Source: a virus (Duplodnaviria; Caudoviricetes). Taken from it: a stretch of 64,000 nt of DNA. Both the position numbers and the translations under genes were made by a program. The stretch is from the IMG/VR virus record IMGVR_UViG_3300033121_001593, positions 79,319-143,318 of that record; one strand, given 5' to 3'. Below the pieces are notes generated by a model. It saw only the letters and a program-made list of their open reading frames with translations. It ran no database searches and was not told the origin of the DNA. Positions 10,414-48,024 of the stretch are shown piece after piece. The stretch's first letter is position 1. Each line of letters starts with the position of its first letter.

Positions 10414-11157
10414 TCAGGCTCCTTTGCCCGCCAGCCATTGCTCGAAGCGGGCGGCGGCGGTCACGCCAGGATCGGCGGCCAGCGTCTCACGGTCTACGAT
10501 CACGGTGTAGCCGTCGAGGGCGGGGCCGATCTGGAGCAGGTCGGGGCGATAGAGGGCCGGCTGGTTGAGGGCCGGTTCCCAGGTCACCATGGCGGGGTCT
10601 TGCGGGATACGCACGATCTTGCGGTGGGCGATATCGGTGATGGTCTGCTGGAGCAGGCGCACGCCCATGGCTTGCAGGCGATCCTGCCAGAGCCGGGAAG
10701 CGTCCCAGGTAGGGGGGATAAAGCACCAGTCTTGGGCGGCGATGGGGCCGCCGTCGACGGTATCGTTCAGCCAGTAGACGGTGCCGCCCGTCACCCGTTC
10801 GCCGAGACGGATGGCCCACTTGATGGCGTCGCGGCCGCGGTGCAGGGGCAGGAGGGACGGGTGGAAGCCGATAGCGCCGAAGGTAGCCTTGTCGCGCGTC
10901 TTGCGCCCGATGAAGTCGTGAGAATGAGCCGCGACGATCAGATCGACGCCATCGGGCAGGGTGGCCTCGCGCAGGGAGCCGGCGGGAAGCAGGGGGATAT
11001 GGCGGTCGAGGGCCGCGCCATAAAGGCGGTCGATCTTGGAGAAGGCGTCTAGCGGGGCCGGCGCGGCGACGCCTACGACCGGGTGCCCGGTGTGCTCGAT
11101 GATCATATCGAGCACCAGCTTGCCAAAGTAGCCCTGGCCGGCGAGATAGATTTTCAT
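10414..11157 (-). CDS. Formyltransferase (Fmt/PurN fold)
   Basis: FHPSLLPLHRG and TVDGGPIAAQ 10-formyl-THF transferase motifs. Confidence 0.85.
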   Translation of the reverse strand: MKIYLAGQGYFGKLVLDMIIEHTGHPVVGVAAPAPLDAFSKIDRLYGAALDRHIPLLPAGSLREATLPDGVDLIVAAHSHDFIGRKTRDKATFGAIGFHPSLLPLHRGRDAIKWAIRLGERVTGGTVYWLNDTVDGGPIAAQDWCFIPPTWDASRLWQDRLQAMGVRLLQQTITDIAHRKIVRIPQDPAMVTWEPALNQPALYRPDLLQIGPALDGYTVIVDRETLAADPGVTAAARFEQWLAGKGA

Positions 11158-12335
11158 TTGGGCTTTGTAGTCCTTGCCTTGCGGGGCATCTGCTTGGGCT
11201 TTGCGCCGAAGCGAAAGCCCTGCACGGCCCTGAAGTGTCCGCCATAGCCGAGATTGGTAACGCTCACGCCCGGCTTGTTAGCGAGTGAGGCTATGAGGGT
11301 TGTCGCTGATCGTTTCTTGTTACCGCCGTAAAGGTTGGCGCTGACTTGCGCCCAGCGGGGGTCACGGCGCAGGGCGGCGCAGAGACCGGGGTGGGACGTA
11401 TGGAAGTAGACGACTTTGACGCGGTCGCCATAGCGGGAGTGCCCGTCGACGTGCCACTGGCATAGCTCATTAAGAAAGCGAATGCCGATGCCCGCGCCCT
11501 GCCATTCGGGCATCACAACCATACGGCAGGCGCGAACGCCCTGGACTTCCAGGCGGGGGGAGAAGGCCAGGTGAACGACTGGCTCGCCTTCGACCGTGCC
11601 GACGAAATAGGTGGCGGCGACCATCTTGGGCAGCTTCAGATAGTGATGCGGTTCAAAAATGTGCCAATAACGGGAGTCCGTCTGCCAAAACTCAAGATCG
11701 AATCGTGGCCTTCGCCAAAGGCCCCTCCCCGCGTACCTACCGGTTGCCGTGTCAAATACCCAGTCTGGCTCCAGCCATTCTATGATATCGTAGTGGCAAC
11801 TAAGCAGCACGCACTGGTTGCCGCTGGCTTTGGCCAGGCGCTTCCAGGACTTGGCGAAGGCCAGCGCGCCGAACTTGGCGATCTGGCGATCCACGACGGA
11901 CGTGAACTCGTCGATGACGATTTTGGCGGGGGCCTCGCAGATCACGCGGGCGAGATTGGCCCGGAACTTTTCACCGTTGGATAGGACGGGGAAGGGGCGG
12001 AGCCAGGTCGGGACGGTGCCGAGGCCGACCGCGGCAAGGGCGGCGGTCACTTCGTTGAAGTCGCCGGTCGGGGCGATAGCGTCCACGATGGGCCGGTCGG
12101 CGGGCCAGTTGTCGAAATCGGCGACGGCCTGCGGCCCCCACATCTGCCGGCCCATAGACGTCTTACCTGAGCCAGACGGGCCGACGATCAGGCCCAATGA
12201 CCAGCCGGGGTCATCGATGGGCAGGGTAGCCTCAAGATCGAAGTTAGCGCCCGACTCGGCGTTGAACAGGGATTTGACGCGGGCGGCGCGATAGGAGTCG
12301 AAGTCGGCGCAGTTGTTATGAACCGTGATTTTCAT
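11154..12335 (-). CDS. ABC-type ATPase fused to a GNAT/Mom-like acetyltransferase
   Basis: GPSGSGKT, LSNGEKFR signature, IVIDEFTS, SCH; C-terminal HHYL and RMVVMPEWQGAGIG acetyl-CoA motif. Confidence 0.85.
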   Translation of the reverse strand: MKITVHNNCADFDSYRAARVKSLFNAESGANFDLEATLPIDDPGWSLGLIVGPSGSGKTSMGRQMWGPQAVADFDNWPADRPIVDAIAPTGDFNEVTAALAAVGLGTVPTWLRPFPVLSNGEKFRANLARVICEAPAKIVIDEFTSVVDRQIAKFGALAFAKSWKRLAKASGNQCVLLSCHYDIIEWLEPDWVFDTATGRYAGRGLWRRPRFDLEFWQTDSRYWHIFEPHHYLKLPKMVAATYFVGTVEGEPVVHLAFSPRLEVQGVRACRMVVMPEWQGAGIGIRFLNELCQWHVDGHSRYGDRVKVVYFHTSHPGLCAALRRDPRWAQVSANLYGGNKKRSATTLIASLANKPGVSVTNLGYGGHFRAVQGFRFGAKPKQMPRKARTTKPK

Positions 12336-15601: not shown

Positions 15602-15888
15602 CGCTGCTTCTCCTTGGGATAATTTGGGATAACGTGGGATACTGTGGGATATTCCGCCTCACAGGCCAGGCAGATATCGCCGGCCTTGCTCATGGCGTAG
15701 TGGCCGACCCAGCGGCCGCAATCGATGCAGCGCAGCACGCGGCGGGCGTCGACGGTTAGCTCCCAGGCCAGCCGCCATTCGACCAGGCCGGCCGCTTGGG
15801 CGGCGGCGAGGAAGCCCTGATCGCCGCCATCGGCCAGCGCGGTCATCAGGGCTTGCCTCTCGCCGATTGTGATAAAGCTAGTCACCAT
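15595..15888 (-). CDS. Small Zn-finger protein
   Basis: CIDC...CLAC; GAGGAGG SD; overlaps the TROVE stop. Confidence 0.55.
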   Translation of the reverse strand: MVTSFITIGERQALMTALADGGDQGFLAAAQAAGLVEWRLAWELTVDARRVLRCIDCGRWVGHYAMSKAGDICLACEAEYPTVSHVIPNYPKEKQRC

Positions 15889-17329
15889 CCTCCTCATTTG
15901 CGCCGGCCACGTTTGCGCCCTCGAAGGCCGCAATGAAGTGCATGAACTGAGACGACCAGCCGGTGACCTCAGCGGTCCAGACTCCCGCATAGCTCACGCC
16001 GCGGCTATGGCCCGAAATGTCGGTGATGTAGTTGCGGGCGGCCCATGGCTCCGGCATCCGTCCGCTATCATCCATATCCTGCGAGTCGCTGAAGACGATC
16101 AGCCGGTCAGCCGGGGCACCGCGCCGATCCGCCTTGATGAAGTCCAGGGCCTGGCGGGTGAAGATACCACCGCCGCCCAGACGCCCGGAGGCGCGCCTGA
16201 TCTCGTCCATCAGGGCAAAGCCGCGCCGACGCTTCAGTAGCTCGGTCTGGTGCGTCTGCCCCAAATCGCTGCCGGCAGTAGCATAGACCTGGACCTTGAC
16301 CGCCTGCTCGGCCGCCAGCATGGCCAGGGCCGCGGCGGCGTCCAGCCAGGAAAGGTCGCTCTGCCCGGAGAGCCTGCCGTGCTCCATCGATCCCGATACG
16401 TCAACAACGAGCACGGTCTCGCCGGCCAGCTTGGGGGCGGTCGCCAGCGCCCGGAACATCATAGCCTCGATCTCGCCCTGCCAGCGGGGCGCTGCCCGGC
16501 CGGCGGCGATGAAGTTGATCGGCAGCAGCCAGCGCGCCGGGGCCGTCTCGAAGTAGGCCGCGATGGCGGCCCGGTCCACGCCCTCCCGCTCCATCAGGGC
16601 CAGGTTACGCAGGAAGGCCAGGCCGGGCAGCCGGCGCTCGGCCATCAGGCGCTCGAACGTCTCACGCTTGTTCGCTCCGGCGCTCAGGGCCACCTCCCAG
16701 GTATCGGGGGGCGTAACATGGCCGGCCTTTAGCTCGGCCAGGGCGCGGGCGTTGCGCGGCGTCGGGACCGGGTGCAGCAGGCGCGCGGCGTCTCGCAGGG
16801 TGACGGCGTGCCCCTTGCCCTGGTACTTGGCCAGTTGATAGTCATCGAACTGAGCAAAGGCGTGAGCCAGCCCGGTCTTGAGTTGGCTGGCCAGCGGCGC
16901 GCGCGGCTTGCCGGCGGGGGTCGGGTTTTCCATGGCGTAGAGCGTGAGGGCCTCGGTGATGCCGTCGGCGCGCCCGACGATCACGGGTAACAGCTCGGCC
17001 ACCAGCGCCCGGTGGGCGGGGTACTTGAGCATCTGGATTGCCACGAACAGGGGAACGTGGCGCAGGCCCTGTTCGTTGCGCGCCTGCCAGGCCAGACGGG
17101 CGACGACCGCCGGCTCGACCTCAGGCACCAGCTTGCGGATCACGTCCGCGGTCACCGCGCCGCGCTCATAGAATTTGTCCTCCCAGAGCAGGTTAGAGAG
17201 GATCGCTCGCGCCAGCAGGGCGTCCGATCCCTGCAGGGCGGCCGGCGCGCCCGCGCCTCCGGCCACGCGCGCCTTGGGGTCCATCGCGCCCTTGCGGCTC
17301 GGCTTGGGGGTTGGCTTGTTGGTTCGCAT
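15878..17329 (-). CDS. Ro60/Rsr-like TROVE-vWA RNA-binding protein
   Basis: LLWEDKFYE, GLRHVPL, FDDYQLAKY, PDTWEVALS, AFLRNL, vWA MIDAS VDVSGSM, IVFSDSQ. Confidence 0.92.
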   Translation of the reverse strand: MRTNKPTPKPSRKGAMDPKARVAGGAGAPAALQGSDALLARAILSNLLWEDKFYERGAVTADVIRKLVPEVEPAVVARLAWQARNEQGLRHVPLFVAIQMLKYPAHRALVAELLPVIVGRADGITEALTLYAMENPTPAGKPRAPLASQLKTGLAHAFAQFDDYQLAKYQGKGHAVTLRDAARLLHPVPTPRNARALAELKAGHVTPPDTWEVALSAGANKRETFERLMAERRLPGLAFLRNLALMEREGVDRAAIAAYFETAPARWLLPINFIAAGRAAPRWQGEIEAMMFRALATAPKLAGETVLVVDVSGSMEHGRLSGQSDLSWLDAAAALAMLAAEQAVKVQVYATAGSDLGQTHQTELLKRRRGFALMDEIRRASGRLGGGGIFTRQALDFIKADRRGAPADRLIVFSDSQDMDDSGRMPEPWAARNYITDISGHSRGVSYAGVWTAEVTGWSSQFMHFIAAFEGANVAGANEEDGD

Positions 17330-23841: not shown

Positions 23842-24058
23842 TTGGGGCCTCCCCGGTCGGCACGGTCGCGCCGATCTTGTTCAGTAGGTGAACGATCAGA
23901 TTGATCGTTCCGGCCGTGAGCAGGGGTTCGCTCACCGTCTGGCCGGCGTGAATACCGCTGCGGGCGACACGCTGCGTCGGCAGGGACGCTTCCAGCAGCG
24001 TCCGCGCCATCGCGCCGGCGGCTTTGATCTCGGCGGCGTCGAAGGTTCCTGTGGTCAT
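23834..24058 (-). CDS. Hypothetical protein
   Basis: Coupled ORF. Confidence 0.5.
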   Translation of the reverse strand: MTTGTFDAAEIKAAGAMARTLLEASLPTQRVARSGIHAGQTVSEPLLTAGTINLIVHLLNKIGATVPTGEAPSE

Positions 24059-24291
24059 GATTCTCTCCGGGTGGTGAACTCGAAACTGATCGCCCAGCCC
24101 GTCTCGGCCTCGTCTACATAGACCTGGGCAAAGGCGCGGCGGCCGTCGACCATATCCACACTGACGCCAGCCACGTCGCCCTCGGTCCAGGTTACGGCGG
24201 CGCTCACGGCTCCGCCATGATCGACGGCGGCCTCGAAGGCCCCTGCACAGGCGGCCTCCCGCTCGGTGACTGTCATTGTATCGGTGGTCAT
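24055..24291 (-). CDS. Hypothetical protein (Leu-free)
   Basis: 78 aa, no Leu. Confidence 0.55.
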   Translation of the reverse strand: MTTDTMTVTEREAACAGAFEAAVDHGGAVSAAVTWTEGDVAGVSVDMVDGRRAFAQVYVDEAETGWAISFEFTTRRES

Positions 24292-24345
24292 TTAGATAGG
24301 CCCTTTCACGCTGTCCGGGCGGGGAATTCCCCGCCCGGTGATTGA

Positions 24346-24546
24346 CTAGAAACGATGGCTGCGCTCGAAGTGGCGCTCGGCCATCCCGGCCTCGTGGGCG
24401 GCGGCGGCAGCGGCTTCGTAAGCGGCGAAGGCGGCGGCGGCCTCAGGGGACTCAGGCCCGAAGGCGGCGGCGGCTCGGCTGTGGGCGGCGGCGGCGCTTA
24501 TGGCGGCCCCTTCGGCAAAACTGGCTCGGCGGCTGTAGCTCGTCAT
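24346..24546 (-). CDS. Ala-rich early protein (Leu- and Val-free)
   Basis: First ORF behind a promoter; AAAGGA SD. Confidence 0.6.
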   Translation of the reverse strand: MTSYSRRASFAEGAAISAAAAHSRAAAAFGPESPEAAAAFAAYEAAAAAAHEAGMAERHFERSHRF

Positions 24547-27507: not shown

Positions 27508-27756
27508 TTAGACGCCTTCGCCCTCGAAGCGCATTCGGGCATCTGCGACTGCCTGATTGGCGGCGGCCTGGTTCCGGCTGGCGGCCTGCCAGGCGGCCTC
27601 GGCGGCGTTGACCTTTGCGTCGTCGTCGGCGTTGCTTGGGTTACGCTGCATCCGGGCCTGCGCCCAAACCTTCCAGGCTGCGTCGGCGGCCTGATTGGCC
27701 TCGAAGCGTGCCTGCCGTGCTGCTCTTACCTGGGGGTGCTGGTTCTTGGCTGCCAT
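27508..27756 (-). CDS. Ala-rich early protein (Leu-free)
   Basis: First ORF behind a promoter. Confidence 0.6.
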   Translation of the reverse strand: MAAKNQHPQVRAARQARFEANQAADAAWKVWAQARMQRNPSNADDDAKVNAAEAAWQAASRNQAAANQAVADARMRFEGEGV

Positions 27757-30180: not shown

Positions 30181-30399
30181 CTAGTAGCGAATGCTCGCCT
30201 CGTTGCGGGTCTCAGGCTCGTCGCCGTTGTCGAAAATGATACCGCTGCCGTCGCAGTCGTAGCACCAGTTGTAACCGCTGGCTGCCGGGGCCTGTCCGTC
30301 TCGGCTGCCGCAGCCGCCGCAAGTCTCGCAGATCGGGCTGTCGCCTTCGGCTGCGTCGGGGGTCATTTCGGTCGTCTCGGTCCAGATTGTGCGGGTCAT
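30181..30399 (-). CDS. DnaJ-type Zn-finger early protein (Leu- and Val-free)
   Basis: CETCGGCG...CYDCDGSG; first ORF behind a promoter. Confidence 0.65.
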   Translation of the reverse strand: MTRTIWTETTEMTPDAAEGDSPICETCGGCGSRDGQAPAASGYNWCYDCDGSGIIFDNGDEPETRNEASIRY

Positions 30400-30543: not shown

Positions 30544-31737
30544 TCATTCATAGTCGCCGGCCCGCCCGACCAACTCGACCAGAAAGGCGATGGTGGCCTG
30601 AGCGTCATTGTAGACGGTGAACTCGTCGCGCCGCGGCCAGGAGATCGGGTTAGGCGGGGCGACCGCGTGCATCGAGTCGTACAGGCCCTGGGCGGCCCCG
30701 TGGTGCCCGTCGTCCTGGCGGACGGTGACCTTTTTCTCCCGGCCCAGCTTGACCGAGAATACCGCCATGCAGGCCGGATCATCGCTGCTACCGCCGCCCC
30801 AGCGTGCGCCCTTCAGGCTCGTGTAGCTGATCGACTTATGCGCCCAGTCGGCAAAGTACAGGCCCTTGCCCAAGGCCCAGCCGTTTGAGTATGACGGGCG
30901 GATAACTAAGCCCTGCGTCATGATCGACCAGAAGTTCGGCGTCTTGCTACCGTGAAAGAGCAGCCGGCCTTTTTCGCCGGGCTTCCAGGCGTCATACTTG
31001 GCCTGCGTGGCGAAGTGGATCACCCGCCAAATCCGGCCGATGTTCGGCTTGCTCTGAGCCTCGACCAAGGCCAGGACTTGCGCCCGCTCAGCCGGCGTCG
31101 CCTCCCGGATATCGAGGCCGATGGCGTCCAGCACCGTTTGATCGGCGGCGGTAGGCTGCGGGCGTGCCCTCAGGCTGGCGCGTAGCTGATCGACTAAGGC
31201 TTGCTCGTCGGCGAGCTTTGCGCCGATCACATGCCGCGCCGCGCCGGCCGGCAGTAGCTCGTCGGCGACCTTGCGCATCTTACGGGGCAAGACCCGCCAT
31301 AGCTCGACCAGGCCGGCGTTGACGGCGCTGACCGTCATCTGCCCGTTGAGGCCGCCGATCCGGTCCAGGATGCGCTGCGCCTCGACTAGCTGCGCCTCGG
31401 TGATGCTCTCAGCGTCCGAGTAGCTGGCGGCGATTGAGACGCCCGCCTTTTGCTGCAGCCAGTCCACCAGCCAGCCGACCGAGCCGGCCAGGGGCTTGAA
31501 AGCGACCGCGTCCAGCGTGCGCTTTTGCGCCGTCATATCCCGATAATCGTGCTTCTCCCGCGTCCGAATCGTCGGGTTCCACTCCGACATAGGGAATACC
31601 TTTGACTGGCCCGCCGTGCCCACCCGGCCCCAGCGCGCCGTGAAGGTCGATCCCGCGGGGTCGGCCTTCATCTCGTAGAATTTATTGGCGTTGGCGTCCG
31701 CCGCCACCTTGATCCCGTACCAGAAATCTGTCGTCAT
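30544..31737 (-). CDS. PARP-family ADP-ribosyltransferase with WGR and regulatory domains
   Basis: NANKFYEM...RWGRVG (WGR); LLFHGS, GKGLYFAD.A.KSISY and DEFTVY give the H-Y-E triad. Confidence 0.9.
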   Translation of the reverse strand: MTTDFWYGIKVAADANANKFYEMKADPAGSTFTARWGRVGTAGQSKVFPMSEWNPTIRTREKHDYRDMTAQKRTLDAVAFKPLAGSVGWLVDWLQQKAGVSIAASYSDAESITEAQLVEAQRILDRIGGLNGQMTVSAVNAGLVELWRVLPRKMRKVADELLPAGAARHVIGAKLADEQALVDQLRASLRARPQPTAADQTVLDAIGLDIREATPAERAQVLALVEAQSKPNIGRIWRVIHFATQAKYDAWKPGEKGRLLFHGSKTPNFWSIMTQGLVIRPSYSNGWALGKGLYFADWAHKSISYTSLKGARWGGGSSDDPACMAVFSVKLGREKKVTVRQDDGHHGAAQGLYDSMHAVAPPNPISWPRRDEFTVYNDAQATIAFLVELVGRAGDYE

Positions 31738-32538: not shown

Positions 32539-33345
32539 TTAGCGCCAGCCGGCGCTCGCTCGGTCGGTGATTTGCTCGATGGCGACACGTAGATTGTCGC
32601 TGATTTTTTCGGGCGGCAGATCGAACGTCTTTGACCGTTCCACGTACTGCGCCGCCCAGGCCGTCAGGGCGGCGACCTCGCCGGCCTCCACCACGCGCCC
32701 GCCAAAGCCAAGGCGCTTGGCCGTCGCCAGATTCGTCGCCTCACGCATACACTCGACCGGCCAGGCGGGGTTCCAGGTCAGGGCGTCGAAGTCCAGCGAC
32801 GGGGGATTGCCCGATGACAGGCTCTCCAGCGATGATAGCGCCGGCACCAAGAACATCAGCCAGTCCTTGACCGTCGCGCCCTCCGGCCAGCCCTGCCGTG
32901 CCTGGTTGCGCGCCTGGCTGGCGTAAGCCTGCACCAGGGCCGACCGGCGGTGGATCATGTACCAAAGATGAGCCACCGACTGGCCCAGCGGGGTCGTTAC
33001 GTAGAGCAAGGGGCTGGCCAGCCATTCCAGGGCGGTCGGGTTGGACCGCAAGACCAGGCCCAGGAACTTGGTTAATTCCATGCCGGCGGCGTCGATTGTC
33101 GCCGGCACGCTCAGGCCCAGGACCGCCCAGTCCAGCTTGTCCAGGACCTCACGCGTCGCCGTCCGGTCAACCCGGAAGTACCAGGCGGTCGGGGGAACGT
33201 ACACGAAGCGCAGATCGTGGTCGCTCGTCTCCGCGCCCAGGCCGCGCGCCCGTGAGCCGGCGTCTACCGCATAGATCACGGTGTAGCCCGTCGCCTGCTC
33301 GATGGCCTGTAAAAGGCCCTTGATTTCGTCTCGATATGTCGTCAT
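32539..33345 (-). CDS. DNA pol-beta superfamily nucleotidyltransferase (YcgL/RlaP-like)
   Basis: AVDAGSRARGLGAETSDHDLRFVY, ELTKFLGLVLRSNPTALEWLASP. Confidence 0.85.
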   Translation of the reverse strand: MTTYRDEIKGLLQAIEQATGYTVIYAVDAGSRARGLGAETSDHDLRFVYVPPTAWYFRVDRTATREVLDKLDWAVLGLSVPATIDAAGMELTKFLGLVLRSNPTALEWLASPLLYVTTPLGQSVAHLWYMIHRRSALVQAYASQARNQARQGWPEGATVKDWLMFLVPALSSLESLSSGNPPSLDFDALTWNPAWPVECMREATNLATAKRLGFGGRVVEAGEVAALTAWAAQYVERSKTFDLPPEKISDNLRVAIEQITDRASAGWR

Positions 33346-35133: not shown

Positions 35134-35451
35134 CTAGAAGCTGGCGAAACCGTTGCTGCAGTCGGTCATCCAGCGGCTGGTGGCCTCGGCGCTGAATGCC
35201 TGCGCCTGTGCCTCGGCGTCGGCCTCGAAGGTGCCCTCGGTGCCGAATTCTGCGAACATGGCCGCCATACGGGCCATCTCGGCCTCGATGACTTCGGTCT
35301 GCTCGGCGTCGGCCTCGGTGGCGATACCGCTCTCGATGATGAACCAGCCGGTGGCGGTCTGGAAGGTCTGCTCGGTGCGGGCAGCTTGGCGGGCTGCCTG
35401 GCGGGTGGCGATGATTGCGGTCCAGTCCTGGGTGGTGGTTTGGGTGGTCAT
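35134..35451 (-). CDS. Acidic early protein (Leu-free)
   Basis: 105 aa, no Leu; first ORF behind a promoter divergent from the CCA-type gene. Confidence 0.65.
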   Translation of the reverse strand: MTTQTTTQDWTAIIATRQAARQAARTEQTFQTATGWFIIESGIATEADAEQTEVIEAEMARMAAMFAEFGTEGTFEADAEAQAQAFSAEATSRWMTDCSNGFASF

Positions 35452-35510: not shown

Positions 35511-35582
35511 ATTTTACTCCTACTTGTTCAATTTGTCAAGGGGTTGAACCTTAAAACTTTGCCTTTTTTCAAAACTCGTTTG
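35511..35582 (-). promoter_or_regulatory. Early promoter (type B)
   Basis: TTTAAGGTT-7-TTGACA-17-TAAAAT. Confidence 0.8.
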
Positions 35583-35619: not shown

Positions 35620-35659
35620 ATATTGCTACTTGACAAACTGAATGATATCATGATATAAT
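35620..35659 (+). promoter_or_regulatory. Promoter of the CCA-type gene (subtype shared with rtcB)
   Basis: ATATTGCTAC-TTGACA-18-TATAAT with TGn extension. Confidence 0.75.
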
Positions 35660-35706
35660 GGGCTTAGTTAGATAAGCCAAGCCGAACCGAAAGGACGCCC
35701 GCCGAA

Positions 35707-37029
35707 ATGAAGATCAGCCCCGCAGCAGAGACCATCAGCCGAATAATCGAGACCGCAGGCGGAAGCGCCTGGATCACGGGCGGGGCCTGCCGCGACGAGA
35801 TCATGGGCCGGACGCCTCGCGACTTCGACATCGAGGCTTTCGGGATCACGAAGGAAGCGGCCTGTGAGGCTATCCGGGCCGCAGGCTTCGCCTGCAAGAT
35901 CGCCGGAGCCGCCTACAGCATTATCATCGCCACGGTGGACGGCGAGGATATCGAGATTAGCATCAGCGCCGGCACGATTGCCGAGGCTGCCGCCCGGCGC
36001 GACTTCACCGCCAACGCCATCTACTTCCGCCCGGCCACCGGCGAGTGGGCCGACTCCTTCGGCGGCCGCGCCGATATCGAGGCCGGCATCATTCGAGCCA
36101 CGCCCGGCTTCGCTCAGGACCCCGGCCGCATGATGCGGGCCGCCCGCTTCGCCGCCCGCTTCGGCTGGACCATCGAGCCGGCGACGCGTGACATGATCCG
36201 GGCCATGGCCGGTCGTATGAGCGAAGTGGCCACGGAGCGCATCTGGCCGGAATTCGCCAAGGCTTTCGAGGCCGACCGCCCCGGCGACTTCATCCGGGCC
36301 ATGGCCGAGATCGGCATCATGGGCCACTTCCCCGAAATCGCCGCCATCTGGGACTGCCCGCAGGACCCGGCTTGGCACCCTGAGGGACCGACCGGCCCCC
36401 ACTCCGCTCACACGATGGACGCCGCCGCCGCCATCTGCCGGCGCGACGGTATCACAGGCGAGGATCGGATCGCCTTCATCGCCGGAGCCATGGTGCACGA
36501 CTTCGGCAAGGCTACGACGACGGTGACGCGGGAAGACGGGCGCATCGCCAGCCCCGGACACGCCGAGGCCGGTATCGAGATCGCCGCCCGCTTTTTCGCC
36601 CGCTGCGGCATCGCCGGCAGCCCGGTGGCCGAGCGAGCCATCGCCATGACGGCTGAGCACATGAGCCACACGGGCGAGATCAGCCCCCGCACGGTGCGCC
36701 GGATCGCCGCCCGCATCGCCCGCCATGGCGCGACGATCAGCGACATCGCCCGGATCATCGAGGCCGACGCCTCCGGCCGCCCGCCCATCCCGGCGGGGAT
36801 GCCTGAGGGTGGCCGGCGCATGATCGAGATCGCCGCCTCCATGGCGATTGTGGACGCCGCCCCCGTGGCCATCATCATGGGCCGGCACTGCATCGCCGCC
36901 GGCATGGCCCCCGGTCCCCGCATGGGCCGGATCGTGCGAGCCGCCTTCGAGGCTCAAATCGACGGGGCCTTCGAGGACGAGGCCGGCGGGATCGCCTGGA
37001 TCGCCGAACACGCCGCCGAAATCGCATAG
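35707..37029 (+). CDS. cca: Class II tRNA nucleotidyltransferase (CCA/CC-adding) fused to an HD phosphohydrolase; leucine-free
   Basis: GGACRD...DFDIE (motif A), RRDFTANA, QDPGRMMRAARF, ERIWPE; HD domain HPEG..GPH, VHDFGK, GHAEAG, ADASGR; C-terminal GRH...PGPRMG. Confidence 0.92.
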   Translation: MKISPAAETISRIIETAGGSAWITGGACRDEIMGRTPRDFDIEAFGITKEAACEAIRAAGFACKIAGAAYSIIIATVDGEDIEISISAGTIAEAAARRDFTANAIYFRPATGEWADSFGGRADIEAGIIRATPGFAQDPGRMMRAARFAARFGWTIEPATRDMIRAMAGRMSEVATERIWPEFAKAFEADRPGDFIRAMAEIGIMGHFPEIAAIWDCPQDPAWHPEGPTGPHSAHTMDAAAAICRRDGITGEDRIAFIAGAMVHDFGKATTTVTREDGRIASPGHAEAGIEIAARFFARCGIAGSPVAERAIAMTAEHMSHTGEISPRTVRRIAARIARHGATISDIARIIEADASGRPPIPAGMPEGGRRMIEIAASMAIVDAAPVAIIMGRHCIAAGMAPGPRMGRIVRAAFEAQIDGAFEDEAGGIAWIAEHAAEIA

Positions 37030-37056
37030 GGCAGCCGCAAGGCTGGGGGGAGGCCC

Positions 37057-37129
37057 AACCTTAAATTTTTTGAATATCCCCAAAGAGGCCCCTTTTTTGC
37101 TTGACAAATTGAACGACCTGATATATAAT
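37057..37129 (+). promoter_or_regulatory. Early promoter (type A)
   Basis: AACCTTAAA box, TTGACA-17-TATAAT. Confidence 0.8.
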
Positions 37130-46272: not shown

Positions 46273-46637
46273 CGGCTGGCCAACCGCTCCCCGGCCCGTA
46301 TCGGCCGGACGGGAATTACATCCACTTTGACACGCCAGACGCCGGCCTACCGACGCTGCTGGCCCGGCTTTACGACACGTCAGACCGCAGCCCGGAGGCG
46401 CTTGTCGCCACCACGCGTCTGATGGCCGCGTCCTGGGAGATGTACCAGGCCCTGCTAGCCGAGGACGACTTTAACATGCGCGTCGCCGCCGTTACGAGTA
46501 GCATGGACGCGGGCGACCCCGCTTCATCCTGGCAGCCCGCCCTGGATGAGCTGACCGCTTTGGCGAGGCGCGTCACCCGCCTACGCCGGGACGCCCTGGC
46601 CAAGGCACAAGGCCGCCCGGTCAATATTGCTACTTGA
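46269..46637 (+). CDS. Phage TPGP...AKA-family protein
   Basis: PLPGPY, ATTRLMAASWEMYQAL, DALAKAQG. Confidence 0.55.
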   Translation: MTAGQPLPGPYRPDGNYIHFDTPDAGLPTLLARLYDTSDRSPEALVATTRLMAASWEMYQALLAEDDFNMRVAAVTSSMDAGDPASSWQPALDELTALARRVTRLRRDALAKAQGRPVNIAT

Positions 46638-46661
46638 CAATCTGAATGAGTAATATATAAT
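46624..46661 (+). promoter_or_regulatory. Promoter of rtcB (subtype shared with the CCA-type gene)
   Basis: ATATTGCTAC-TTGACA-16-TATAAT. Confidence 0.75.
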
Positions 46662-46704
46662 AGGTGTATTGAGCAAGTTATCCGCAGCGAAAGGAACCGA
46701 CCCA

Positions 46705-48024
46705 ATGAATACCCATCTTCTGCTTAACCGATACCGAGGCCAGGCGAACTATGGCGAAATCGCCAAGGACGCGGCGAAGGCCGCCCAAGCCAATCCCGCC
46801 ATGACCGAGGCTGAGTTACTGGCCTACATCGAGTCGCGCTACGCGCCGGCCACCCTACTGCAGCCGATGAAGCAGGCCGCGCCGCTGGCGGTATTCGGCG
46901 CTGACCTGATCGACCCCGGCGCGTTTGCGCAGATGTACTCCGTCTTGCGCCTGCCCGTGGCGGTACGCGGGGCCTTGATGCCGGACGGGCACCAAGGGTA
47001 CGCGATGCCCATAGGCGGGGTGGCGATCCTACGGGACGCCGTCTCGCCCTCATTCGTTGGCTATGACATCGGCTGCATGATGATGGTCTCGACCTTCGAG
47101 ATCACGCCGCAAGACTTCGCCGGCAGCCGCCCGGCGCTGGCCGCGGCCCTGCGTAACGTTACGTCGTTCGGCCTGGGCGCGATGACGCCGGCTGCACAAG
47201 GCCGGTTCGATCACCCGGTCATGGACGATCCCCGCTGGTCGGAGACGGCCATCTTACGCTCGCTGAAGCCCCTGGCCCGTGAGCAGTTAGGCAGTTCGGG
47301 CGGTGGCAATCATTTCGCCGATCTGTGCGAGGTGACCTGGGCGACAGGGCGCGACGCGCAGATTGCCCTCATGACGCACTCCGGCAGCCGGGCCGCCGGT
47401 CATAAGCTGGCGACGCACTATGTCTCTGTTGCCCGGAGAGAGACGGCCGCCATCGCCCGTGGGATCGAGCCAGGCTACGAGTGGCTGCCCGACTCCAGCG
47501 AGGCCGGCCAGGAATATCTGGCCGCCATGCAGTTGATGGGCGACTACGCGCGGGCCAATCACGAATGTATCCACGCCGCCTATGCCGAGGCCATCGGAGT
47601 CCGACCGGACTGGACGGTCTGGAACCGGCACAACTTCGCCTGGGTCGAGGAAGAAGGGATCGTACACCGCAAGGGCGCAACGCCGGCCCGCGCTGGCGAT
47701 ATCGGGATCATCCCCGGCAGCAGCGGAACCCCGTCCTATATTGTCCGAGGCAAGGGCAACGTCGCGTCGATCAATTCGTCTTCTCACGGCGCAGGCCGGC
47801 CCTTCTCACGCAGTGAGGCCAAGCGCCGGCACAACGCCGGCCAAGTCGACGGCTGGATGACCGAGCACGACGTTCTGAGCTTCGGCCTGGCCCCCGACGA
47901 GACCTATGCCGCCTACAAGGATATCGCGGCCGTCATGGCGGCGCAGACCGATCTGGTCGATATCGTCGCCACGCTCATCCCGCGCGTCGTCGTCATGGGC
48001 GGGCCGGCCGACGACGGCGATTGA
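46705..48024 (+). CDS. rtcB: RtcB RNA 2',3'-cyclic/3'-phosphate-5'-OH ligase
   Basis: MPDGHQGYAMPIGG, VGYDIGC, LGSSGGGNHF, THSGSR, HNF, VHRKGAT, SSHGAGR, DETYAAYK. Confidence 0.95.
   Translation: MNTHLLLNRYRGQANYGEIAKDAAKAAQANPAMTEAELLAYIESRYAPATLLQPMKQAAPLAVFGADLIDPGAFAQMYSVLRLPVAVRGALMPDGHQGYAMPIGGVAILRDAVSPSFVGYDIGCMMMVSTFEITPQDFAGSRPALAAALRNVTSFGLGAMTPAAQGRFDHPVMDDPRWSETAILRSLKPLAREQLGSSGGGNHFADLCEVTWATGRDAQIALMTHSGSRAAGHKLATHYVSVARRETAAIARGIEPGYEWLPDSSEAGQEYLAAMQLMGDYARANHECIHAAYAEAIGVRPDWTVWNRHNFAWVEEEGIVHRKGATPARAGDIGIIPGSSGTPSYIVRGKGNVASINSSSHGAGRPFSRSEAKRRHNAGQVDGWMTEHDVLSFGLAPDETYAAYKDIAAVMAAQTDLVDIVATLIPRVVVMGGPADDGD

Follow-up and report, generated by a model that had tools for sequence, protein, structure and literature searches.

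A leucine-free tRNA nucleotidyltransferase gene in a phage and the tRNA-directed host defence it may reflect

Why would a phage enzyme of 440 residues contain no leucine at all? The gene that raises this question occupies positions 35707..37029 (+) of the window, by which we mean the whole 64,000-nucleotide stretch of viral DNA analysed here. It encodes a predicted class II tRNA nucleotidyltransferase of the CCA-adding type that also carries an HD phosphohydrolase domain. We examined its composition, its relatives and its genomic setting, and weighed the circumstances under which a message free of Leu codons would be of use.

Composition and predicted function of the enzyme

An earlier note on this DNA had described a CCA-type/HD protein of 440 aa with no Leu and with Val encoded by GTG only, and a recount confirmed this: the ORF has 0 Leu, 57 Ile, 92 Ala and 19 Met, and its Val codons are GTG in 9/9 cases. 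Across the 182 called ORFs of the phage genome Leu makes up 8.4% of residues, giving P = 2e-17 for 0/440. At the 10% Leu assumed in the earlier note, which put the chance at about 1e-20, the recomputed value is 7e-21, and the capsid gene (391-1362, -) indeed has 29 Leu in 323 aa. GTC, said there to be common elsewhere in the window, accounts for 49% of the genome's Val codons and GTG for 31%, so that P(9/9 GTG) is 2.6e-5. The gene's two other frames together contain 51 Leu triplets and its own frame none, which bears out the argument that the constraint acts on codons or amino acids and rules out a nucleotide-motif cause such as restriction-site avoidance. An altered genetic code is also ruled out, as CTG is heavily used by other genes and makes up 51% of the phage's Leu codons. 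A 479-aa antisense ORF (35668-37107, -) is open because the sense strand lacks CTA, TTA and TCA codons, and was dismissed as a by-product. Depletion of GCG and TCG was likewise set aside as a special signal, since a bias for GCC over GCG is common to other early genes and therefore reflects ordinary expression bias.

Profile matches to PolyA_pol head (PF01743; 8e-15, 55.7 bits against a curated cut-off of 23), PolyA_pol_RNAbd (PF12627; 8e-12, 45.1 bits against 22) and HD (PF01966; 7e-7, 29.9 bits against 22) agree with a match to PHROG 2244, tRNA nucleotidyltransferase (6e-55). The nucleotidyltransferase head domain (35767..36096, +; aa 21-130) carries GGxxRD, DxD and RRD motifs, and motif A (G25, G26, R29, D30), D39/D41 and motif B (R97/R98/D99) are conserved, with few or no exceptions, in relatives both with and without Leu. 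Motif D ((E/D)DxxR) reads QDPGR, with D138 and R141 conserved and Q in place of the usual E; the nearest outgroups read EDPLR. In the HD domain (36400..36672, +; aa 232-322) and beyond it, H232, H264-D265, H285, H318 and D354 are invariant, conforming to the H...HD...D metal-binding pattern. Aligned with its relatives, the Leu-free enzyme thus retains the GGxxRD, DxD, RRD, DxxR and HD catalytic residues intact.

The AlphaFold model (pLDDT 93.9) has the seahorse-shaped head-neck-body-tail fold, and its best Foldseek match is the Aquifex aeolicus (A. aeolicus) CC-adding enzyme (E 3e-16, TM 0.63), with B. stearothermophilus, T. maritima and human CCA-adding enzymes among the further top matches. 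On the evidence of this model, the intact motifs and dN/dS values of 0.14-0.36, the gene is predicted to encode a functional, active enzyme. Template-independent addition of the full CCA to tRNA 3' ends, rather than of CC alone, A alone or a poly(A) tail, is putative; the nearest solved fold belongs to a CC-adding enzyme. In E. coli Cca, the HD domain works as a phosphatase and as a 2',3'-cyclic phosphodiesterase, both of use in healing RNA ends, and the phage domain may similarly have one or other of these activities on RNA ends. By eye, at least the terminal A appears to be missing from most of the phage's own tRNA genes.

Compared with the nearest Leu-containing relatives, RD(L/A)L(L/M)G has become RDEIMG, DPLRVLR has become DPGRMMR and GRHL has become GRHC, in keeping with three of the motif replacements listed in the earlier note; HDLGK has further become HDFGK. 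The listed change of DLxRRD to AAARRD does not count as a loss of Leu, since AA(A/S)RRD is also what the nearest outgroups have. Conserved Leu columns are replaced in the window protein at 26/26 positions, buried and exposed alike, and the core Leu-free clade lacks a 19-residue loop found in its nearest relatives.

Relatives, selection and repeated origin

Eight homologs at 69-98% identity carry 0-1 Leu each, and the neighbouring genes on their contigs all have normal Leu content. When evolution was simulated on the clade tree from a Leu-free root (LG+G4, 200 runs), neutral regain amounted to 8-12 Leu per tip, or 77.5 in sum with a minimum of 50 in 200 runs, against 1 observed. The Leu-free state is held by purifying selection that is near-absolute. 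Among homologs at 40-50% identity, P0129 and P0278 (the latter on a contig of 46% GC) also have 0 Leu, while P0211, P0140 and P0271 have 2, 8 and 12, and contigs with the Leu-free trait span 46% to 65% GC. Intermediate members with 8, 12 and 19-20 Leu indicate a constraint that is graded rather than all-or-none, which counts against a simple block.

When L/I/M/V were masked for tree building, the Leu-free members came out interspersed with relatives of 23-49 Leu, requiring 4 state changes, and their monophyly is rejected (delta lnL 127, AU p=0.0002). The Leu-free or Leu-poor state reflects at least 3-4 transitions in several separate lineages, and the window protein and P0129 have different replacements at 16/26 conserved Leu columns.

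The earlier note had proposed a check of cellular orthologs, which might have been equally Leu-free; all 77 cellular homologs contain 8.1-14.9% Leu. Viral homologs from IMG/VR have at least 3.9% Leu (n=65), none of the 80 viral loci from the IMG/VR alignment search is Leu-free, and an IMG/VR search with the single window protein yielded no relatives. The four phage-database enzymes, from three cultured phages and one faecal-metagenome contig, have 8-10% Leu. No close cultured relatives were found among phages, where megablast of the locus gave no match and best identities were at most 31% for the CCA protein (tblastn) and at most 33% for the capsid. Leu stands out among the amino acids avoided by homologs, the others being Val in one subclade and Ile in one protein that lacks it. 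None of the other repair proteins of the phage that were checked lacks an amino acid, and a literature search returned no report of Leu-free repair enzymes. Taken as a whole, the results support a Leu-free state that is adaptive, gene-specific and in-frame.

The few Leu codons that remain are mostly TTA/TTG: TTA in L006, two TTA in L011 and 6/8 TTR in L012, a bias drawn from no more than 11 codons. Together with codon-specific Val use, this points to the level of tRNA or decoding as the probable site of the constraint. Val is encoded by GTG only in the window gene and in L008 and is absent or nearly so in L004 and L005, and one subclade is losing it altogether (0, 1, 7, 9 and 9 Val). In other Leu-free members GTC is common (18/34 Val codons in L001, 14/22 in L003, 19/42 in L010), and this absence of GTC avoidance from several Leu-free lineages counts against the Val part of a tRNA-block reading. 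The interpretation first given to this locus therefore stands in part: the state is adaptive, selected, recurrent and absent from cellular orthologs, but the involvement of tRNA-Val(GAC) holds only for the lineages with GTG-only or purged Val.

Genomic setting and competing explanations

A near-consensus sigma-70-type promoter (TTGACA-N18-TATAAT; 35630..35659, +) lies 48 nt upstream of the CCA gene, and a consensus promoter stands directly upstream of the cca gene in 8/12 loci checked. The upstream flank of the window's cca promoter, ATATTGCTAC, is common to the promoter of rtcB (46634-46661; 25/26 identical to the cca promoter flank), whose product is an RtcB RNA ligase of 451 aa (46669..48024, +). 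The window also encodes RlaP, a pol-beta-type nucleotidyltransferase of the RNA-repair pathway (32539..33345, -), a protein with WGR and PARP catalytic domains (30544..31737, -), homologs of which are also found close to the Leu-poor or Leu-free cca genes of L001, L008 and the more remote L012, and a Ro60-like (TROVE + vWA) protein that belongs to the phage's RNA-repair and quality-control set (15878..17329, -). RtcB, RlaP, PARP-WGR and Ro60 all have normal Leu content, and that RtcB is not Leu-free in the same phages would fit, if indirectly, a lesion at the 3' end. Neither ARAGORN (default or relaxed) nor Rfam detected a phage tRNA-Leu or tRNA-Val, and the idea that the CCA enzyme matures a phage tRNA-Leu was dropped, the phage having no such gene.

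Several small ORFs of the window are Leu-free as well. A divergently transcribed ORF of 105 aa (35134..35451, -) has 0 Leu and 1 Val and is the first gene behind a leftward promoter at 35511-35539; promoter-proximal ORFs of 72 aa (30181..30399, -; 0 Leu, 0 Val) and 82 aa (27508..27756, -; 0 Leu) and two consecutive ORFs of 66 and 78 aa (24055..24546, -; 0 Leu each) complete the set. All lie at 24-36 kb of the window, close to divergent early promoters, and none matches a Pfam or PHROG family. Small first genes behind early promoters have a Leu content of 3.1%, compared with 7.7% for other genes of matching size; 4/14 of them are Leu-free, as are 1/50 of the others.

We tentatively propose, at a little short of an even chance, that a host defence disables tRNA-Leu and that the Leu-free CCA enzyme stays translatable and restores the damaged ends. 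Hosts would, as an immune or abortive-infection response, disable the acceptor end of tRNA-Leu by removing or modifying its CCA tail, which we infer to be the most likely cause, with tRNA-Val also struck in one subclade. An enzyme that restores tRNA-Leu could not itself rely on tRNA-Leu, and repeated and continuous selection against Leu codons would allow it to be made while such codons are unreadable. The cca gene would be transcribed first in the rightward block from its own strong host-type promoter, its product would rebuild tRNA ends, and only afterwards would the Leu-containing proteome, RtcB and capsid included, be made. Damage to tRNA-Leu, its location at the 3' end and the host as its agent are all three inferred from composition. 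It counts against this model that a host CCA enzyme is normally there already, so that the phage enzyme would need to contribute extra activity or amount. The missing amino acid might then serve as a 'bootstrap signature' that names the tRNA or tRNAs disabled by an undescribed immunity, here all tRNA-Leu isoacceptors at the acceptor end and, in a subclade, tRNA-Val, the signature having arisen convergently in several phage lineages with different hosts; we regard this broader claim as a real possibility that falls well short of probable. PrrC cleaves tRNA-Lys, yet avoidance of Lys is not known from the T4 repair enzymes Pnk and Rnl1, so the principle may not be general.

The same signature would result from a shortage of charged Leu or Val, or from a block inflicted by the phage itself. 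During infection Leu-tRNA, joined in some hosts by Val-tRNA, might become scarce through starvation for amino acids derived from 2-ketoisovalerate, or because a toxin of the host or an antibiotic from a competitor inhibits LeuRS or ValRS; the enzyme would be Leu-free in order to be made at that time, perhaps for the upkeep of uncharged tRNAs with nibbled ends. Leu and Val share a biosynthetic precursor that is not used by Ile, and the joint loss of Leu and Val in one subclade, with Ile increased to 13-16%, is compatible with a supply problem and with tRNA damage alike. Codons also differ in their sensitivity to Leu limitation, in line with the prevalence of TTA and TTG among residual Leu codons, and the graded Leu counts of relatives (0, 2, 8, 12, 20, 23-35) resemble a quantitative cost. 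However, near-absolute selection (1 Leu against ~78 expected) fits a complete block better, charging shortages are usually relieved by protein turnover, and a supply problem would neither be curable by restoring CCA ends nor explain why the CCA enzyme alone, and not other early or repair genes of the relatives, is affected. We judge such a shortage unlikely. Quite unlikely, in our estimate, is that the phage transiently disables host tRNA-Leu to halt host translation, inducible defences included, making Leu-poor first-wave proteins meanwhile, and that the Leu-free CCA enzyme afterwards restores tRNA-Leu so that middle and late genes can be translated. A host tRNA-Leu is cleaved in T4 infection, and the low Leu content of first genes and the clustering of Leu-free small ORFs beside divergent early promoters speak for such a sequence of events. 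Set against it, no candidate nuclease was found, and the Leu-free small ORFs belong to no recognised family. Some Leu remains in most first-wave proteins. The phage lacks a tRNA-Leu gene, and CTG accounts for 51% of its Leu codons. In related contigs the early genes adjoining the Leu-free cca gene have an ordinary Leu content, so that first-wave depletion is not conserved with the trait.

Causes that lie outside translation fare worse. A reason at the level of the protein, such as escape from a protease, degron or inhibitor of the host directed at Leu-containing surfaces, or a preference for beta-branched and Met cores, is very improbable: the confident fold of the model, in which Leu gives way to Ile, Met and Ala, suggests that such a core is viable, but replacement extends to every conserved Leu column, buried or exposed, no known protease demands removal of every Leu, and a protein-level cause cannot explain GTG-only Val or the TTA bias of residual Leu. 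Chance, or mutational or compositional drift in a GC-rich phage gene, has a negligible probability and is ruled out; beyond the general Ala and Arg richness of GC-rich genes nothing favours it, and the genome-based P value, the normal neighbours, the range of contig GC content, the simulation and the AU test all reject it.

Significance and comparison with known systems

If the proposed tRNA-Leu damage by host defence is correct, a widespread, undescribed tRNA-Leu-directed and partly tRNA-Val-directed block would operate in uncultured hosts, and phage CCA/HD enzymes would gain a counter-defence role beyond maturation of phage tRNAs. Targets of tRNA-directed immunity, a fast-growing field, have so far been found system by system and by experiment; scanning viral repair genes for amino-acid-free enzymes would offer a general and purely computational screen for what unknown defences attack. 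Were a charging shortage the cause, a natural Leu-free enzyme of 440 residues, nearly Val-free too in one subclade, would still be a notable proteome-level adaptation, and it is a case of protein design with a reduced alphabet.

The enzyme shares Pfam architecture, catalytic motifs and predicted fold with class II CCA-adding enzymes, but has 0 Leu where 77 cellular homologs have 8-15%, and its gene is phage-borne and driven by an early promoter. Biosynthetic enzymes can be biased against their cognate amino acid, and sulfur- and carbon-sparing isozymes are depleted in the missing building block; those biases are modest and belong to cellular metabolism, whereas here the absence is total and the enzyme is one of viral RNA repair. 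T4 Pnk and Rnl1, which act on PrrC-cleaved tRNA-Lys, and phage RtcB-type repair are likewise phage enzymes that undo host tRNA damage, and the window phage has RtcB, RlaP and Ro60. Their site is the anticodon loop, however, whereas the repair proposed for the window enzyme is at the 3' end, and its composition avoids its presumed target; we know of no report of an amino-acid-free composition for T4 Pnk/Rnl1 or phage RtcB-type repair.

Acceptor-end effectors such as Cas12a3, the toxSAS enzymes FaRel2 and CapRel, and MenT/AbiEii disable CCA ends, often of selected tRNAs, a kind of lesion that a CCA/HD enzyme might reverse. Cas12a3 cuts the CCA tails of a tRNA subset (PMC12851939), FaRel2 pyrophosphorylates the CCA of tRNA-Gly and tRNA-Thr (PMC11559606), MenT3 targets tRNA-Ser and weakly tRNA-Leu5 (PMC7450476), and MenT1 is cited as acting on tRNA-Leu-3 (10.64898/2026.01.19.700257). 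None of these effectors is known to hit all tRNA-Leu isoacceptors, and the analysis neither found one nor linked one to these phages. The closest parallels in principle are the transcripts that lack a given codon and so escape a tRNA-cleaving toxin, as with MazF-mt9 and tRNA-Lys (PMC6620280), and the avoidance by phages of codons read by nuclease-targeted tRNAs (PMC10264068): in each case a codon-free message is translated when a tRNA is inactivated. In both of those cases the bias is statistical and spread over a whole proteome, that of the toxin's own host or that of a phage, whereas the window enzyme dispenses with all six Leu codons, belongs to a state of several origins and could itself reverse the lesion.

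A leucine-free tRNA nucleotidyltransferase

The virus record (143,318 bp, 63.6% GC, about 97% complete by CheckV), whose right-hand 64 kb make up the window, carries a cca gene of 440 codons at 35707-37029 (+), assigned from Pfam and PHROGs. Its product has a PolyA_pol nucleotidyltransferase head, a PolyA_pol RNA-binding domain and an HD domain, each above the Pfam cut-off, and PHROGs labels it a tRNA nucleotidyltransferase. As the earlier note reported, the enzyme contains no leucine at all, alongside 57 Ile, 92 Ala, 19 Met and 9 Val residues (P = 2e-17, given a mean of 8.4% Leu over the 182 called ORFs of the genome). Its observation that Val is encoded only by GTG also holds (nine of nine codons; P = 2.6e-5, given genome Val usage of 49% GTC and 31% GTG), as does the persistence of CTG/CTT-type Leu triplets out of frame: 51 occur in the two other frames and none in frame, so the constraint acts on the codons read by ribosomes and not on the DNA. 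Its reading of AAARRD as a Leu replacement within DLxRRD has to be dropped, since the nearest relatives likewise have AA(A/S)RRD. The absence of CTA, TTA and TCA codons from the sense strand of cca leaves open a 479-aa antisense ORF at 35668-37107 (-), codon-aligned exactly with cca; this ORF is thus a by-product rather than a gene.

Motifs, dN/dS and predicted fold all argue that this is a real, working protein. The GGxxRD, DxD, RRD and DxxR motifs, together with the histidines and aspartates of the HD domain, do not vary between Leu-free and Leu-containing relatives, and dN/dS among its closest homologs, the core clade described below, is 0.14-0.36. AlphaFold, given a 12-row alignment, modelled the protein with a mean pLDDT of 93.9. 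Among PDB structures the model comes closest to the CC-adding enzyme of Aquifex and to the CCA-adding enzymes of Bacillus, Thermotoga and human, and comparison at the sequence level gave matches as well. At 26 columns that are Leu in Leu-normal relatives, the Leu-free proteins mostly carry Ile or Met, then Val, Phe and Cys. The nearest Leu-containing relatives have a loop of 19 residues (RRESKxGxGHRGF...) that is missing from the core clade; it falls at about columns 115-133 of alignment A1, between residues 86 and 87 of the window protein.

Conservation and repeated origin

A search covering 5.8 billion proteins placed the window protein in a tight core clade with eight metagenomic homologs (P0003-P0010; 69-98% identical, several metagenomes), each with 0-1 Leu; the single Leu of P0008 lies within a mis-called N-terminal extension and that of P0009 is a TTA codon. 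The next relatives are 43% identical or less and have 35-65 Leu. Neighbouring genes are normal in Leu on every core-clade contig recovered, including an RtcB gene directly downstream of cca in two of them. When we simulated evolution from a Leu-free root along the core-clade tree (LG+G4, 1.3 substitutions per site, 200 runs), 8-12 Leu were regained per tip; the total came to 77.5 and never fell below 50, against an observed total of 1. Selection therefore removes new Leu codons. The Leu-free state is thus conserved, gene-specific and under continuing selection.

Cellular copies are not equally Leu-free, so the first outcome that the earlier note had named as refuting its idea does not arise: 77 homologs from bacterial genomes and MAGs contain 8.1-14.9% Leu. 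The 65 homologs taken from IMG/VR viral contigs contain 3.9-14%, and the enzymes of phages 4MG, D181 and pEp_SNUABM_01 and of a gut phage contig 8-10%; our searches found no cultured relatives of the window phage itself.

Two more searches, one an exhaustive HMMER scan over 1.84 billion representatives and the other word-based, added relatives at 40-50% identity that are Leu-free or Leu-poor: P0129 and P0278 (0 Leu each), P0211 (2), P0140 (8), P0271 (12), P0255 (19) and P0190 (20). The contigs that carry them span 46% to 61% GC, and the neighbouring genes are again Leu-normal. On a tree built with every L, I, M and V masked, so that composition does not drive topology, Leu-free proteins occupy three or more separate positions amid relatives with 23-49 Leu, and at least 4 state changes are needed. 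A tree constrained to a single Leu-free clade, a group named after the unconstrained tree had been seen, is worse by 127 log-likelihood units (AU p=0.0002). Of 26 conserved Leu columns, just 10 carry the same replacement in the window protein and in P0129. These comparisons indicate that the Leu-free state arose more than once. Another CCA-enzyme homolog, P0209 (442 aa, on a contig of up to 19 kb), has no Ile where about 20 would be expected, with 63 Leu and 54 Val, and P0144 has 2 Ile; P0209 could be an Ile-free counterpart or simply an effect of extreme GC.

The few residual Leu codons in the Leu-depleted genes are TTA in locus L006, two TTA in L011, and three TTA, three TTG and two CTG in L012 (small numbers throughout); TTA makes up 0-4% of Leu codons among neighbours on the L006 and L011 contigs. 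Val counts in the window protein's subclade are 9, 7, 9, 0 and 1, all readable residual codons being GTG, and the absence of Val from P0005 has P of about 1e-13 against the family norm. L006 has 15 GTG, 10 GTT and no GTC, which is weakly significant. The codon record suggests a second, younger purge of Val confined to one subclade. The earlier proposal that tRNA-Val(GAC) is also inactivated is therefore lineage-specific at best, as other Leu-free lineages (L001, L003, L010, L015) use GTC freely. The preference of cca for GCC over GCG recurs in other early genes, so it probably reflects ordinary expression bias.

Genomic setting of cca

The cca gene is the first of a rightward block, with a near-consensus promoter 48 nt upstream; of 12 loci checked, 8 have a consensus-like promoter immediately before cca, independent Leu-free lineages included. 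A stretch of 26 nt, identical at 25 positions, is common to the promoters of cca and rtcB (35620-35645 and 46624-46649); it includes an upstream ATATTGCTAC absent from two other promoters aligned and hints at co-regulation of two tRNA-repair genes. About 10-11 kb separate cca and RtcB in the window phage, whereas in the Leu-/Val-free subclade (L004:3819-4976 and L005:2942-4078) RtcB follows one or two small genes downstream of cca. The phage's RtcB, RlaP, WGR-PARP and Ro60-like proteins are all normal in Leu. Genes with WGR and PARP catalytic domains (window 30544-31737 (-); L001:4097-5257; L012:2042-3229) lie a few kb from Leu-depleted cca in both the core clade and the distant P0140 lineage (L012), and may encode a conserved partner in RNA-end chemistry.

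Outside the window, the phage carries a cluster of 8-10 tRNA genes (G000:C1:32004-38290, locus L009) for Tyr, Ala (two), Trp, Arg, Phe, Ile, Glu and Asp and one of undetermined type, with none for Leu or Val among them. Inspection by eye suggests that most do not encode at least the final A of CCA; several read N73-CC and then T, which leaves that A unencoded.

Five small ORFs on the minus strand are Leu-free: two within 24055-24546, and one each at 27508-27756, 30181-30399 and 35134-35451, the last a 105-aa ORF divergent from cca behind a matching promoter. Two also lack Val, most are first genes behind early promoters, and no family match was found for any. Small first genes behind early promoters average 3.1% Leu (4 of 14 Leu-free), against 7.7% (1 of 50) in size-matched genes; Leu-poor small first genes were not seen around cca in related contigs. 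Elsewhere in the genome, a 3,621-aa protein (G000:C1:64661-75526 (-), outside the window) that is probably a giant component of the tail or another structure has no Cys (39 expected) and is strongly depleted in Arg, His and Tyr. At 10414-12335 (-), amid structural genes, a formyltransferase-domain gene adjoins one with weak ABC-ATPase and GNAT matches.

A possible need for translation without leucine codons

The ban on Leu codons acts in frame, is specific to this gene, recurs and is nearly absolute, and the simplest explanation is that the enzyme has to be made while Leu codons cannot be decoded. Of the phage's genes it is the one for rebuilding tRNA 3' ends that is affected, and RtcB, which reseals anticodon loops, is not; this points to an acceptor-end lesion of tRNA-Leu that the Leu-free enzyme would reverse. 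A host defence is the likeliest, though still tentative, candidate for the agent behind the ban. The simulation and the homolog comparisons rule out drift, and causes at the protein level leave the synonymous codon effects unaccounted for.

A shortage of charged Leu and Val would fit the common precursor of the two amino acids, the graded depletion and the tolerance of TTR codons; it is nonetheless unlikely, explaining neither why the CCA enzyme alone is affected nor why selection is near-absolute. We consider it rather improbable that the phage itself inflicts a transient block and passes through it with a Leu-poor first wave: the Leu-poor small first genes would suit this, but they are seen in this genome only, and no nuclease candidate was found.

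The CCA enzyme family is well known; for the Leu-free state, its convergence and the logic that it implies we found no report in the literature searched. Decoding under tRNA loss has established parallels in messages that escape a tRNA-cleaving toxin by lacking its codon (PMC6620280) and in codon avoidance by phages (PMC10264068). The lesion that we propose for tRNA-Leu likewise has established precedent in immune effectors that attack the acceptor ends of selected tRNAs: Cas12a3 cuts the CCA tails of about half of tRNAs (PMC12851939), FaRel2 pyrophosphorylates tRNA-Gly and tRNA-Thr (PMC11559606), and, among MenT enzymes, MenT3 extends tRNA-Ser and, weakly, tRNA-Leu5 (PMC7450476), while MenT1 has tRNA-Leu-3 as its cited target (10.64898/2026.01.19.700257).
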